Translations under genes and position numbers: made by a program | Source: an uncultured Verrucomicrobiales bacterium | Lineage (GTDB): Bacteria > Verrucomicrobiota > Verrucomicrobiia > Verrucomicrobiales > CAZUPP01 | Length of the DNA stretch: 64,000 bases | NCBI GenBank assembly: GCA_964622095.1 | Contig: CAZUPP010000009.1 | Span: 63,932-127,931 of the forward strand | Direction: 5' to 3' | The notes under the pieces: generated by a model | What the model was told of the DNA's origin: nothing | The model's database searches: none | What the model saw: the letters and a program-made list of their open reading frames with translations, nothing else | Shown here: one piece after another, positions 57,442 to 64,000 of the stretch | Numbering within the stretch: the stretch's first letter is position 1 | Layout: each line of letters opens with the position of its first letter

Positions 57442-58251
57442 CTATTCTTCCGCGTATTCCGGATGCCGAAACCATCTGGAAATCAGTTCGTTTGTTTCTT
57501 CCTCCAGAAGTAAAGAGAGAGATTGAGTACGGCCTTTGAAGAAATGATAGATTGCCAGACAAGGCATGGCGATGGCCAGACCTGTCGCGGTGGTAATGAG
57601 CGCTTTGGAGATACTGTCTGCCAGAGTGGAAGCATCACCTAGAGCACCGAGTGACGCGACGCTTTCAAAGGCTTCGATCATGCCGATGACTGTTCCGAAT
57701 AATCCAAGCAACGGGCTGATCATCGCAACCACAGAAATAGGATAGGCTCGCTGCAAGTGACGGCGCATTTCCCGGCTGGCCACTTCACTGGCAAGTTCAG
57801 AGATCTCCGCGGGGGAATAATTCCGGTGCCTGACAATCGACGCGACAACTCTGCCTAAGGTGCTGCGTGAACTCTGTGCTTCTTCCTGAACGACGCCATA
57901 GTTACCGGCCATCCAGTCCCGGTTCAGCCGGTCAGATAATCCCGCCGGAACTATTCGCACACGCCGTAAATTCAGGGCTCGCTCAAGGGAAAAGGTTAAT
58001 CCTGCCAACGAAGCTACCGCGAGAAAAACCATGGTAATACCGCCTTGTCGGAGCCGTTGGAAAAAGCCTGGTTCTTCAGACCGTGCTGTAGGTGACGCCG
58101 ACGGACTCACGGTGGAACCATTGACTGCTTCTTCCGCCCGAAGTGACGGAGCAACTCCAGACGCGACCGTCACAAAAATGATGACCAATCCGCTGAAAAT
58201 AGCCGGAAACCGCATCAGCCTATTATTTGGAAGCCTCACGTTTAAAAACAT
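57442..58251 (-). CDS. exbB: MotA/TolQ/ExbB proton-channel family protein
   Basis: It has an N-terminal signal-like segment and a periplasmic region. The C-terminal LGLFGTVIGMIEAF...TTATGLAIAMP is the family signature. The alternative start ATG 58215 removes the 29-nt overlap with the upstream gene. Confidence 0.85.
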   Translation of the reverse strand: MFLNVRLPNNRLMRFPAIFSGLVIIFVTVASGVAPSLRAEEAVNGSTVSPSASPTARSEEPGFFQRLRQGGITMVFLAVASLAGLTFSLERALNLRRVRIVPAGLSDRLNRDWMAGNYGVVQEEAQSSRSTLGRVVASIVRHRNYSPAEISELASEVASREMRRHLQRAYPISVVAMISPLLGLFGTVIGMIEAFESVASLGALGDASTLADSISKALITTATGLAIAMPCLAIYHFFKGRTQSLSLLLEEETNELISRWFRHPEYAEE

Positions 58252-58714
58252 CCAGCTTCCAATAGACCACGGCGATCATACTCAAGATCATACCGAAAAA
58301 GTTACGTTTTACGGCGCTTTGAAAAAGAATCGCGCTGAAGAGCCCGCCCAGAATGAACTGGCTGCGCTTTTCATCATCTGTCGGCCGGTCCAACCAGCGC
58401 CGGGCTCCTTCCAGAATGTCACGAACGGTTTGCGGCACTTCTTCCCGGTGACGAGGGGCCGAGAAGAGCATGGGTGAAAGAAATACGCCGGTGATAGACA
58501 ATAATCCAATGAATCCGTCCCTCTTCCAGAAAGCCGCGAGCAGCGCGAAAAGAAAAAACATGCGGAAGCCCCACGTCGCCGGATTGTGCATGCGATTCCA
58601 CATTTCTGTAAAGAGAGGAATGCTCGCCGCAACCCTAGGTGGCGGAACAAAGACGGAACTGTCGGAATGGCTGTTGGAGATAGGCGCTTCGGCCTGCGGT
58701 TTTTCAGTGCTCAT
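58223..58714 (-). CDS. polytopic membrane protein of unknown function (163 aa)
   Basis: ATG start with 3-4 hydrophobic segments. The segment WNRMHNPATWGFRMFFLFALL is reminiscent of a DUF-type family that I cannot name with confidence. Confidence 0.55.
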   Translation of the reverse strand: MSTEKPQAEAPISNSHSDSSVFVPPPRVAASIPLFTEMWNRMHNPATWGFRMFFLFALLAAFWKRDGFIGLLSITGVFLSPMLFSAPRHREEVPQTVRDILEGARRWLDRPTDDEKRSQFILGGLFSAILFQSAVKRNFFGMILSMIAVVYWKLDVFKREASK

Positions 58715-59721: not shown

Positions 59722-60461
59722 ACTCCCCGCATTCTGGAGACCTCCGGAAGCGATAATACTTTTTCCGCAATGTCTTCACGGGAACCTTCCTTCAGCTCGG
59801 CCAGGGTGACAGCGTCATCGACATGGAATTTTCCCGACCGCGTCCGGCGTAAAGCACTGATGTGGGCTCCGCAGCCAAGCTCCTCACCGATATCATGGGC
59901 ATAAACTCTAACGTAGAACCCTTTGCTGCACCTGACGCGAAACTGCACTTCCGGAATCTCTATATTCAGAATTGCATAATTGTAGATATGGACGAGGCGC
60001 GGGTCACGCTGAACTTCTTTCCCCTGGCGGGCCAACTTGTAGAGCGGCACCCCTTCTTTCTTTACGGCGCTGACCATGGGAGGAGTTTGATAAATATCAC
60101 CCTGAAACTTCGCAAAAATGCCTTCAATCTGTTCATGGGAGATCTGGTCGACGGGGTGCTCCTCAATGATTTCTCCCTGGGCGTCATGGCTGTCTGTTTT
60201 TTGTCCAAGGGTCATGGCTCCGACATATTCTTTATCCTCGCTCATGAGCAGGTCGGATATCTTTGTGCCGCGCCCCAGAACCAGAACGAGTAATCCTGTA
60301 GCGATTGGGTCGAGCGTCCCGCAATGCCCAATCTTGCGCATGCCGAGGGTGCGCCGGGCAATATCGACGACATCATGGCTCGTCATACCGACGGCTTTAT
60401 CCACCAGCAATACGCCGTCGAGGTTATTTGCTGGATCACTCTGACGTCTTCTCGAGCTCAT
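59718..60461 (-). CDS. truB: tRNA pseudouridine(55) synthase
   Basis: GVLLVDKAVGMTSHDVV and GHCGTLDPIATGLL (catalytic Asp). Its stop overlaps the ribF start in an ATGA. Confidence 0.95.
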   Translation of the reverse strand: MSSRRRQSDPANNLDGVLLVDKAVGMTSHDVVDIARRTLGMRKIGHCGTLDPIATGLLVLVLGRGTKISDLLMSEDKEYVGAMTLGQKTDSHDAQGEIIEEHPVDQISHEQIEGIFAKFQGDIYQTPPMVSAVKKEGVPLYKLARQGKEVQRDPRLVHIYNYAILNIEIPEVQFRVRCSKGFYVRVYAHDIGEELGCGAHISALRRTRSGKFHVDDAVTLAELKEGSREDIAEKVLSLPEVSRMRGV

Positions 60462-61491
60462 TTTTTATCTTTTCTATCACTCGCTTCTTCGCCTCATCCA
60501 GCGGGCCGGGCAAACGCGCTCCTGCCGCGAGCATATGACCTCCACCTCCGAAACTTCCGGCAATCTCGCTGACATTGGCGACCTCCGCATCTTTGGAACG
60601 AAAGCTCACCCGGACTTTTCTCAGCCCGGCATCCATCATCTCCTCAAAGAAAACTGCGACCTCTACAGAATCAACGGAGCGAACATAGTTGATGAGGCCT
60701 TCGGTATCCTCGCGGCTCACTCCGAGGGTCTTCATTGTTTCCAGAGTCAAGAACATGCTCGCCACTCGGTCAGCGCAGAAAAACTCTCGGGTCTCAAGAA
60801 CGGCGGCCAGAAGATCAATGCGGCGTTTGGGGTAACTGAAATAAAGTTGCTGGCTGATCCTTCCAACATCAAGCCCTTCGGCGACCAACTGCGAAGCGGT
60901 GCGGAAGGTTTCAGCCGTAGTCGATCCATATTGAAATGATCCAGTATCGGTCGCAATTGCCACAAACAGATTCTCCGCGATCTGACGGTTCATCGGCATG
61001 TCATTCTCATAGATGAGCCGGGATACAATTTCTCCGGTTGCGGGACTATTTGCATCAACGTGGTTTACCGTGCCATAGCCACGGTTACTGATGTGATGAT
61101 CGATATTAATAAACAGATCAGAACCCGAGACGCGCCCGATGCCGTCTCCCAGTCTTTCCATATCTGCACAATCCAGAGCTACGACCACCTGGAAGCTTCT
61201 TTTCGCAGGATGCGCGGGAGGTTTCAGGCAAAGATGAGAGCCTGGAAGAAATTCGAGACTCTTCAGCAATCCGTCATGGTTCCAGATCGTTACTTTCTTT
61301 CCCAATTCAATGAGCGAAAGCCCGAGGGCAATCTGTGAACCATTAGCATCTCCGTCCGGGCGTTGATGACTAAGGATAAGGAACTCGTCGTGCTGCTTGA
61401 GTAAGCGCGAGATTTCCGGTAGCGAGGTATTCGTGACTTCGCCAGCCTGCGGGCCTGATGATTTCGCAATGGTAGCAGCGGGAACAGACAC
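60436..61491 (-). CDS. nrnA: DHH-family bifunctional oligoribonuclease / pAp phosphatase NrnA
   Basis: GTG start. HQRPDGDANGS, INIDHHISN (DHH) and GGGHMLAAG (DHHA1) are present. Confidence 0.85.
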   Translation of the reverse strand: MSVPAATIAKSSGPQAGEVTNTSLPEISRLLKQHDEFLILSHQRPDGDANGSQIALGLSLIELGKKVTIWNHDGLLKSLEFLPGSHLCLKPPAHPAKRSFQVVVALDCADMERLGDGIGRVSGSDLFINIDHHISNRGYGTVNHVDANSPATGEIVSRLIYENDMPMNRQIAENLFVAIATDTGSFQYGSTTAETFRTASQLVAEGLDVGRISQQLYFSYPKRRIDLLAAVLETREFFCADRVASMFLTLETMKTLGVSREDTEGLINYVRSVDSVEVAVFFEEMMDAGLRKVRVSFRSKDAEVANVSEIAGSFGGGGHMLAAGARLPGPLDEAKKRVIEKIKNELEKTSE

Positions 61492-61542: not shown

Positions 61543-62172
61543 CTATTGCTCGGAGTCCGAATCAGACTCAAAACGGAAGCCAAAGCGGGCACAAACTTGC
61601 TCGAGGACTTCCGGTTCCAATTCCATGTCGAGATTTGCCATCACACCGAGATCAACCAATTCCGACACCAGCCGAAAGGGCGTGACGCTGAGCGCAGCTG
61701 CCAGATCACGCACTTTGATAAACGCCGGCACGTTTAGCGCGGGTAAATCAGGGTGTTTTTGGTCGGCGGCGAGATCAAGCGGACCCTCATCATCCGCAAG
61801 CGTGGGCTCAAATTCCTGCAGTTCATCATCATCTTCGCTTACGGGCAAATCCTGCATTAATTGCACCACGCGCACACCGCGCTCAACTGATTCATCAAGG
61901 TGGAAATTGAGGTGTGGCGTATATTTCAAGACGACACGCTTGGATAAGGCGCTTTGAAGCATGACCCGATTCTCTTCCAACTTGGAAATGACATTGGGAG
62001 ACAGGTGATTGCTGGGCATGACGCCCAAATAAATATGCGCCTGACGAAGATCTGGCGTGATGCTGACCTCATGGATGGTCACCATACCTTCATCAAAAAC
62101 GAGGTTGCGATTTATGATGGCGCTGAGTTCCCGCATCACGGTATTCTCAACGCGTTGCATCCGGCGGCTCAT
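61543..62172 (-). CDS. rbfA: ribosome-binding factor A with an extra C-terminal IF2_N-like domain
   Basis: ATG 62172 gives MSRRMQRVENTVMRELSAIINR...ITPDLRQAHIY...LKYTPHLNFHLDES, the RbfA core of about 107 aa. An acidic linker follows, then a 52-aa segment aligning to the IF2_N domain of the adjacent infB. The track ORF start at 62262 lies inside infB. Confidence 0.85.
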   Translation of the reverse strand: MSRRMQRVENTVMRELSAIINRNLVFDEGMVTIHEVSITPDLRQAHIYLGVMPSNHLSPNVISKLEENRVMLQSALSKRVVLKYTPHLNFHLDESVERGVRVVQLMQDLPVSEDDDELQEFEPTLADDEGPLDLAADQKHPDLPALNVPAFIKVRDLAAALSVTPFRLVSELVDLGVMANLDMELEPEVLEQVCARFGFRFESDSDSEQ

Positions 62173-62225
62173 GGTTCTGGTGAATCCTCCTCCCTCTCCT
62201 GAATTAAATTGCCGCGCGGCGCGCC

Positions 62226-64000
62226 TTAGAGTGTTTGCTGGACGCTTTCCAAGCTGTAACACTCGATAACATCCCCCACTTCGTATTCGGTATAGTCACC
62301 CAGCTTGATGCCGCATTCCAGTCCCAGGCGGACCTCCTTCACATCATCCTTAAAACGGCGCAGAGTAGAAATGGGCCCATCATAAACGGACTGTTTCCCG
62401 CGCAAAACGCGGGCACGTGAGTTCCGGTCAATCTTACCTTCAATGACAAGGCAACCTGCTACGGTGCCGCGGGATAGTTTGAACACCTCTTTCACCTCGG
62501 CATGGCCCACAGGTTTTTCACGCTGCTCAGGCGATAGCAGGCCCAGCATGGCGTCCTTTACCTGGTCAATCAGCTCATAAATGATAGAGTAAAGCTTTAC
62601 CTGCACGCCTTCGGCCTTTGCCTTGGCGACCGCGTTGCTCTCCATCTTGACGTTGAATCCCACAATGACAGCGTCACTGGCGCTGGCGAGCAGGATATCG
62701 CTCTCTGAAACTGCGCCAGCCTGGGCGTGAATGATATCCAGGGTGACCTTCTCAGTCTTGATATCTTTCAACGAGGAAACGACCGCCTCCAGAGATCCCT
62801 GCACGTCCGCTTTGACGACCAGCTGCAGCGTCGGCCGGCCGTCCTGCGCATTGGCAAAGAGGTCTTCCAGGGTGGCCCGCCGCGGAGCCATGAGGTCTTC
62901 CGTGCGCTTCTCCTCCAGCCGTTCATCACTCAGCGTGCGGACAGCTTTCTCATTGTCCATCACCACAAACTGATCCCCCGCTTCTGGAAGACCGTTGAAA
63001 CCGAGCACCTTGGCAGGGTCAGATGGACCCGCTTCCTTGATTGTCTTTCCGCGATCATCAATGAGCGCCTTGACCTTGCCCCAATGCTTCCCGCAAATGA
63101 AGGGCATACCCACTTTCAGGTAGCCGTGCGTTACGACGATCGTCGCCGTTGGCCCTCGCCCAGGTTCGAATTGAGCCTCAATCACCACTCCACGCGGGTC
63201 TGCTTTGGCTGGGGTCTGCAACTCCAGAATCTCTGACTGGAGGAAAATCATTTCCAGTAGGGTATCGATCCCGTCCCCGGTGTGCGCGGAGACCGGCACG
63301 GTAATGGTTTCTCCCCCCCAATCCTCCGCCGCCAGACCGTGCTCCTGCAGTTGAGCTTTAACCTGATCCGGATTGGCCGTAGGCAGATCCATTTTGTTGA
63401 TTGCCACAATGATGGCAACGCCAGCCGCTTTAGCGTGGTTAATGGCTTCGACCGTTTGAGGCATGATGCCGTCATCCGCGGCGACCACCAGCACGACGAT
63501 GTCAGTCACGTTTGCTCCACGGGCGCGCATGGCGGTAAAGGCTTGGTGGCCCGGGGTATCCAAAAAGGTGACGTGTTTGTCGCCGTGTTGCACTTTGTAA
63601 GCTCCAATGTGCTGGGTGATCCCCCCTGCCTCTCCGGCCACGACTCGGGTTTTGCGGATGTAGTCCAGAATGGATGTCTTCCCGTGATCAACGTGTCCCA
63701 TGATCGTGACGATAGGTGGCCGCTCAAGCAGCTCCTCCTCTTCGTGGATCTCCGGCTGGACCGGCTCCTCAACTTTTTCCTCCTCCTTGTGAACTCCCGC
63801 CCCTTTCTCACGGCGCTCTACGTGGAAGGTAAATCCGAACTTCTGACAGATTTTTTCAGCGAGATCGGGTTCCACCCGTTGGTTGATATTGGCGAAAATC
63901 CCCTGCTCCATCAGCTCTTTGATAATCTCAAAGGGCTTGCGGCCGATCGCTTCAGACAGATCCTTTACAATGATCGGCGGCTTCAGGTTGATCAGCTTCT
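62226..64000 (-). CDS. infB: translation initiation factor IF-2, C-terminal about 590 codons (5' end outside the window)
   Basis: The reading frame stays open upstream of the track's Met ([33 protein letters not shown]...). G-domain motifs are [14 protein letters not shown] and NKMD. Confidence 0.95.

Follow-up and report, generated by a model that had tools for sequence, protein, structure and literature searches.

What is a domain of an initiation factor doing at the end of a ribosome assembly factor? In the 64-kb window, by which we mean the whole stretch of DNA analysed here, the rbfA gene encodes a protein that is much longer than usual, and the C-terminal part of this protein resembles a domain of IF2, the product of the neighbouring infB gene. 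Members of the RbfA family bind to the neck of the 30S subunit and function in maturation of the 5' end of 16S rRNA. RbfA is a gatekeeper that bars immature 30S particles from translation, blocking initiation on them until it is released (PMC7145577). There is still debate on how the release is linked to initiation factor arrival: in vitro, E. coli RbfA is released by IF3 but not by IF2 alone (PMC7145577), while genetic and drug data implicate IF2 together with initiator tRNA (PMC10486304). Below, we ask whether the fusion is real, what the added domain is and where it came from, how widely it occurs, and what it might do.

A genuine rbfA gene in the infB operon

The features of the locus are the following:

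60436-61491, minus strand: DHH/DHHA1 phosphoesterase gene, located 3' of rbfA and before truB and ribF
61543..62172, minus strand: rbfA coding sequence, 209 codons plus stop, comprising core, acidic linker and IF2_N-type domain (open reading frame list and translation)
61546..61566, minus strand: acidic C-terminal end of RbfA, SDSDSEQ (translation and alignments)
61567..61737, minus strand: IF2_N (N2-type) domain of RbfA, residues 146-202 (PF04760, BLASTP, AlphaFold2 and Foldseek)
61738..61851, minus strand: acidic linker of RbfA, residues 108-145 (net charge -13; pLDDT 55-68, predicted to be disordered)
61858..62163, minus strand: KH-like core of RbfA, residues 4-105 (PF02033, 81.3 bits; TIGR00082, 64.9 bits)
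rbfA start, minus strand: ATG, with the protein beginning MSRRMQ (translation)
62185..62200, minus strand: purine-rich, Shine-Dalgarno-like stretch AGGAGAGGGAGGAGGA (read from the sequence; putative function)
62226..64000, minus strand: infB (IF2), 3' part, with the 5' end outside the window (Pfam GTP_EFTU, IF-2, EF-G_D2 and IF2_N)
63816..63989, minus strand: N2-type IF2_N domain of infB (Pfam, 40 bits; custom module HMM, residues 4-61)

The long gene lies directly downstream of infB. A 53-nt spacer separates the infB stop codon from the rbfA ATG, and within it lies the Shine-Dalgarno-like stretch, a GGAGG-type run of purines 13-28 nt 5' of the start codon. The gene order infB-rbfA-DHH-truB-ribF is canonical and the same in the window and in its relatives; the DHH/DHHA1 (NrnA-like) gene between rbfA and truB, for example, has the same place in L001, L006 and L030. 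In L001 and L002, infB can be followed beyond the window for a further 108 and 116 codons, respectively, with the reading frame still open. An open reading frame of 163 aa (58223-58714, minus strand) sits between ribF and a MotA/ExbB-ExbD pair; it has predicted hydrophobic stretches and no Pfam match, and is conserved in L001 and L002.

Residues 4-105 of the protein pass the Pfam RBFA profile (PF02033) with 81.3 bits, against a cut-off of 34.7, as well as the NCBIfam equivalog TIGR00082 (64.9 bits, cut-off 51.15). The AlphaFold2 model of the core has helices at residues 2-23, 58-67, 69-79 and 95-107 and strands at 30-38, 44-52 and 87-92, with pLDDT values mostly above 90, and the helix that follows the core ends at residue 107. 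The windowed gene is therefore a genuine, operon-resident rbfA, and it belongs to an uncultured, Chthoniobacterales-like verrucomicrobium. Its length had been put at 209 aa instead of the usual number of about 120, and this is confirmed by the open reading frame and by the best 100 homologues, most of which have approximately 116-125 aa.

The fusion is the same in three assemblies

Two independent Logan assemblies (SRR6462987 and SRR6462997) can be aligned with the window along 12.4 kb and 6.5 kb, respectively, at an identity of 99.9% and with 0 gaps. The 14 and 6 substitutions that they contain are all located outside rbfA, and both encode the identical 209-aa protein (P0001). The GC content of the tail at the 3 codon positions (0.69/0.34/0.59, compared to 0.66/0.36/0.66 for infB) is of the coding type. 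Within the limits of what assemblies can show, their agreement, together with codon-position GC, excludes both a frameshift and a chimeric contig, and at this level the expected continuity of core and tail was upheld: all three assemblies have one continuous open reading frame, with 0 indels. An artefact, be it a sequencing or assembly error that joins rbfA to a separate small open reading frame or a chimeric contig, has as its sole point that all sources are metagenomic assemblies, and is highly improbable given that the three assemblies agree base for base across rbfA without any indel, that the flanking genes are in canonical order, that composition is of the coding type throughout linker and tail, and that an in-frame stop is absent, as is any credible second start with its own ribosome-binding site within the linker.

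The C-terminal domain is of the IF2_N type

The added domain belongs to the IF2_N family. The Pfam profile (PF04760) matches RbfA residues 149-199 with 28.4 bits and an E-value of 1.4e-6, significantly and above the gathering cut-off of 25.3, and the tail by itself scores 29.5 bits. In a pairwise BLASTP comparison with the IF2 segment of the window, the tail has 21/59 identities without gaps (E 3e-16). The original prediction of an IF2_N-type tail is thus borne out by profile search and pairwise alignment as well as by the predicted fold described below. A hand count of 20 identities over 52 gap-free positions was reproduced by MAFFT (20/53), and the linker between core and tail is acidic, as had been proposed. 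With regard to coordinates, the IF2 peptide PIIVKD...FTFH lies exactly at 63822-63977 as given originally, but the tail peptide FIKVRD...FRFE (residues 151-202) occupies 61567-61722 and had been placed 3 nt, or one codon, off. The segment of IF2 that aligns to the tail is the IF2_N domain located approximately 40 residues upstream of the GHVDHGKT G1 motif, and it aligns in turn with residues 261-317 of P. aeruginosa IF2 and 314-364 of E. coli IF2.

In the full-length AlphaFold2 model, residues ~145-202 form a compact beta-alpha-alpha-alpha-beta domain with a pLDDT of ~90, and the linker (108-145; pLDDT 55-68) is without secondary structure. The alignment used in this run consisted of RbfA homologues only and did not cover the tail, so that the confidence for the tail derives from the sequence itself, suggesting that the fold is intact and not decaying. 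Core and tail were modelled with separate alignments, and a second run with the tail and three IF2 fragments gave the same fold (strands at 12-15 and 67-70 and helices at 21-27, 32-41 and 54-63, in the numbering of that run). The tail is therefore predicted to adopt the small three-helix IF2_N fold of the solved IF2 N domains, as anticipated. Consistent with this, the top Foldseek matches of the tail model in the PDB (9a4o_A, 7uiu, 7unv_x, 9h9h_Y and 4b43) are all IF2, with TM scores of 0.73/0.66 for 7uiu ('N2 sub-domain of IF2 bound to the 30S subunit') and an rmsd of 0.9 A over 49 columns for 4b43 (T. thermophilus IF2 1-363). When the PDB was searched by sequence, the tail on its own gave no significant match (E 1.1), and the module profile gave an E-value of 0.0025. 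The best structural match, 9a4o_A, is an 'integrative model of IF2-TagH by crosslinking MS', which hints that an IF2 N-terminal domain may also join in a protein-protein contact in another bacterium.

The number of IF2N copies is two in many IF2 proteins and one in others (PMC1780047). The IF2 of this clade has a single IF2_N domain, N2, which follows ~200 residues of low-complexity charged sequence (L031:342-2732, L002:2-2119 and L003:3566-5917), and no N1 copy was detectable in the IF2 of these three loci. The tail matches E. coli IF2 better at residues 315-364, i.e., N2 (phmmer, 6.8 bits), than at residues 5-37, i.e., N1 (1.4 bits). In addition, it shares the C-x3-GF-x-F motif of verrucomicrobial N2 domains and groups with N2 sequences. 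Match and motif together identify the tail as N2-type and not N1-type.

A diverged domain that comes from IF2

A module profile found 23 loci in metagenomes, 22 of which are IF2 genes with the G1 motif ~40 residues downstream, so that the module is essentially an IF2 feature. The earlier statement that it is characteristic of IF2 therefore holds with one exception, a NERD/helicase gene whose product has two C-terminal copies. This protein (P0245; 958 aa, L005:2086-4962, also present at L020:725-3613) has tandem IF2_N-like domains at residues ~806-861 and 895-945. It shows weak PADLOC similarity to defence-type models (NERD+UvrD, Nhi and AbiO) and may be a ribosome-linked defence or RNA-surveillance helicase.

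Is the RbfA domain a copy of the one next door? The tail is 38% identical to the N2 domain of its own IF2, 33-44% identical to the other C-x3-GF-type IF2 N2 domains compared and 23-25% identical to those of E. coli and P. aeruginosa, while the N2 domains of the windowed IF2 and of the nearest relative share 66% identity. Of 200 neighbour-joining bootstrap trees, only 10 place the tail as sister to its own IF2; usually it lies on a long branch apart from all IF2 N2 domains, or beside the second domain of the helicase protein. Of the proposed paralogy to the neighbouring infB, homology to its N2 domain stands, but descent from that very gene finds no support in identities or bootstraps, and we reject a recent copy of the adjacent infB as unsupported (38% versus 33-44% identity; 10/200). 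The sequence comparisons indicate that the domain is derived, by domain shuffling, from an IF2 whose N2 is of the verrucomicrobial C-x3-GF-x-F type; the adjacent infB may have been the source. Either the copy evolved fast after its acquisition, or else it came from elsewhere. Although strongly diverged, it keeps the fold and every core position.

The infB gene of a related genome (L006:8001-9864, on a 1.48-Mb contig) is called as two open reading frames that overlap by 8 nt, the first of 100 aa with IF2_N and the second of 522 aa beginning near the G domain. A frameshift error or a pseudogene-like split is the probable cause, and this call accounts for the 'stand-alone IF2_N proteins' in the protein search.

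The fusion is found in a single lineage

To determine how widely the architecture occurs, we ran an exhaustive phmmer search with the full protein against 1.84 billion representative proteins. Among the best 150 of the 3,893 hits, only the protein itself spans both domains; the listed matches reach down to 59 bits, and a two-domain homologue should score above that. In a database of 5.8 billion clusters, the sole entry annotated with both PF02033 and PF04760 is again the protein itself, present from Logan only. A tail-only query of this database misses even the protein itself because of the word index, and a four-sequence profile of the module returned two IF2 fragments only. No relative was found in a metagenome scan with the tail, and a GTDB genome scan with the full protein gave only two Chthoniobacterales MAGs, both with a tail-less rbfA. 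Named RbfA homologues come from Chthoniobacterales and other Verrucomicrobiota. The survey thus agrees with the expectation that the architecture is not common, finding the fusion in one lineage only. The combination of RbfA and IF2_N appears to be undescribed: it did not turn up in the literature searched, and in the protein collections searched it is confined to this protein. The known carriers are of one lineage and identical in sequence.

We also looked for IF2_N in the long RbfA homologues (188-258 aa) and found none; these have acidic low-complexity tails or read through into DHH instead. Six of them (P0003, P0101, P0110, P0125, P0129 and P0157; 188-208 aa) have long, highly acidic low-complexity C-terminal tails. 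Acidic tails of variable length are in fact widespread in verrucomicrobial RbfA, and the IF2_N domain described here is appended to such a tail. The open reading frames of P0237 (254 aa) and P0160 (258 aa) run on from RbfA into a DHH domain, and could be true fusions or else frameshifted or partial gene calls. The nearest relative has an RbfA of 141 residues that is 67% identical over the aligned core, with the same gene order and no IF2_N. A search for a decayed remnant of the module 3' of its rbfA gave no match in the 94-nt spacer, and further module copies, sought in the window and in related loci, were not found besides those in rbfA and infB.

A possible second contact with the 30S subunit

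In IF2, N2 docks on helix 16 (h16) of 16S rRNA at the shoulder of the 30S subunit, stabilising and anchoring the factor (PMC9192638); docking of N2 on h16 is confirmed by an E. coli preprint (bioRxiv 10.64898/2026.06.26.734871). The P. aeruginosa interface consists of S277, V278, K279 and R259, together with an extension in the minor groove of h16 (PMC9192638). Since N2 anchors IF2 on h16, the likeliest role of a tethered copy would be contact with the small subunit at or near this helix. Our preferred reading, with a probability of about 0.35, is that the tail acts as a tethered 30S docking module at the h16 shoulder that competes with IF2, where both the site and the competition are taken over by analogy from IF2. 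The N2-derived domain, on its 38-residue disordered acidic linker, would provide a second, low-affinity contact that raises the avidity of RbfA for (pre-)30S particles. Once there, it would occupy or sterically guard the anchoring site of IF2 until RbfA leaves, and this exclusion of IF2 would reinforce the known RbfA checkpoint between 30S maturation and initiation. The NERD/helicase protein, which carries the same module, fits with an autonomous docking module.

The residues at the presumed interface make this reading tentative. In the tail, S162-V163 match S277-V278 of the P. aeruginosa interface, so that the neutral pair is kept, but both basic contacts are lost, with K279 replaced by T164 and R259 by P146. 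The IF2 of the window has G, R, K and K at the positions of S277, V278, K279 and R259. The basic ERREKG that follows the domain in IF2 is SDSDSEQ in the RbfA tail, and at the place of the upstream IF2 extension that wraps the h16 minor groove, the tail has its acidic linker. The core (pI 9.4) has a net charge of +2, the linker one of -13, the domain one of -4 and the final seven residues one of -3; residues 108-209 together come to -20. Such an acidic domain and extension are unfavourable for RNA binding. Compared to a bona fide N2 anchor, the tail thus has neither the basic h16 contacts nor the basic minor-groove extension, and it is located at the C-terminus of RbfA with no GTPase after it. 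Loss of the basic contacts and the acidic nature of the linker argue for a weakened h16 binding or a changed target, which is why we hold the docking mechanism at only the probability given above. By a rough estimate from general 30S geometry, h16 of the same particle would also be within reach of the linker only in a largely extended state. Moreover, in the S. aureus and E. coli complexes RbfA's C-terminal helix points to uS7 in the head, away from the shoulder (PMC9917171), and the displacement of E. coli RbfA by IF3 and not by IF2 alone (PMC7145577) likewise speaks against this reading. A more general proposal, in which the N2-type IF2_N domain is a portable h16 docking module reused for non-IF2 factors (RbfA and the NERD/helicase protein) and RbfA and IF2 compete directly in a hard-wired hand-over, seems unlikely to us.

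Alternative roles for the tail

The same acidic surface, devoid of the basic h16 contacts, would suit a protein or a basic surface as partner better than RNA. The domain might therefore have been repurposed as a protein-protein adaptor, and IF2_N-type domains can indeed bind proteins: E. coli IF2 N1 and the two following beta-strands (residues 57-90) bind the KH2/AR1 part of NusA (PMC12297416). Candidate partners would be NusA on the polymerase that transcribes rRNA, a ribosomal protein or a further assembly factor. With a single IF2_N and no N1 in the IF2 of the clade, an N1-like role could be vacant, and nusA, which here falls beyond the window, is part of the same operon in relatives. However, the tail is N2-type by sequence, and the NusA of one relative (L006; 416 aa) consists of NusA_N, KH1 and KH2 without AR repeats. 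In addition, the diffusion of E. coli RbfA is not nucleoid-like, which suggests that it acts after release of the rRNA (PMC12297416). On balance, we consider an adaptor role improbable, though worth keeping in mind.

It is about equally improbable that the tail is a young, lineage-specific accretion, in which part of an IF2 gene was added to an RbfA that already ended in a long acidic tail, and has been tolerated there while doing little or nothing specific. Restriction to one lineage (among the best 150 of 3,893 hits in 1.84 billion representatives, and in 5.8 billion clusters) would be expected in that case, as would a nearest relative, with a 67% identical RbfA, that has neither domain nor remnant, and the tail region is evolutionarily plastic in relatives, with variable low-complexity acidic extensions. 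Youth is difficult to reconcile with the degree of divergence: the tail shares 38% identity with the N2 of its own IF2 (33-44% with others), compared to 66% for the donor-type N2 between the closest genomes, so that the domain is either old or fast-evolving. An unconstrained, diverging segment of 57 residues would be expected to acquire stops or indels or to lose its foldability, yet here every core position is kept and pLDDT is ~90 without alignment support.

Finally, linker and domain could act intramolecularly, as an autoinhibitory or regulatory element that masks the basic RNA-binding core until the 30S subunit is met or, in a variant, as a decoy for an off-ribosome partner of IF2 N2. The combination of a basic core (pI 9.4) with a very acidic extension (net charge -20) is suggestive, and the widespread acidic tails of verrucomicrobial RbfA suggest that charge itself matters. 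A folded IF2_N domain would be unnecessary for charge alone, however, and the full-length AlphaFold2 model (pTM 0.50, with a low-confidence linker) does not support a fixed contact between core and tail. Taking both variants together, we regard this as quite unlikely.

Comparison with known systems

Taken singly, the two parts of the protein are members of well-known families and are recognised as such by sequence and fold; it is the combination that appears to be new. A natural fusion of RbfA with the anchor domain of IF2 constitutes 'Rosetta-stone' evidence that both factors meet on the same particle, although its weight is limited by its occurrence in one uncultured lineage and by the lack of conservation of the RNA-contact residues. 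With this fusion, it could also be tested in a simple way whether N2 is a stand-alone ribosome-docking module.

The closest known counterpart of the tail is IF2 N2 (N/G1; P. aeruginosa 7UIU/7UNV, E. coli ~294-364, T. thermophilus 4B43), which is of the same Pfam family and predicted fold and, in verrucomicrobial IF2, has the motif PF...L...G..AN...EP...C...GF.F in common with it. By contrast, N2 precedes the GTPase in IF2, whereas the RbfA domain is C-terminal, with acidic instead of basic flanks and with the h16 contacts changed from K to T and from R to P. IF2 N1 (IF2N; E. coli residues 1-50) is an autonomous module of the same family on a flexible linker (PMC12297416), but the tail matches it less well than N2, and the IF2 proteins of the clade are without N1. 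The NERD/AAA-helicase protein is the only other non-IF2 carrier of the N2 sub-type that we found. Its domains, 40-42% identical to the tail, are C-terminal and follow a low-complexity linker, as in RbfA; its enzymatic part is unrelated, and of its two copies the first is basic (+3).

On the side of RbfA, the mitochondrial RBFA provides a precedent for a C-terminal extension that makes added contacts with the small subunit and blocks the mRNA path, which it occupies (PMC9917171; see also PMC9200640). That extension is not an IF2_N domain and is unrelated to the tail in sequence. Canonical RbfA (E. coli and S. aureus, ~115-133 aa) has the same KH-like core, the same place in the operon after infB and the same C-terminal helix after beta3, but stops after a short variable tail, whereas the RbfA of the window continues for another 100 residues that include a folded domain.
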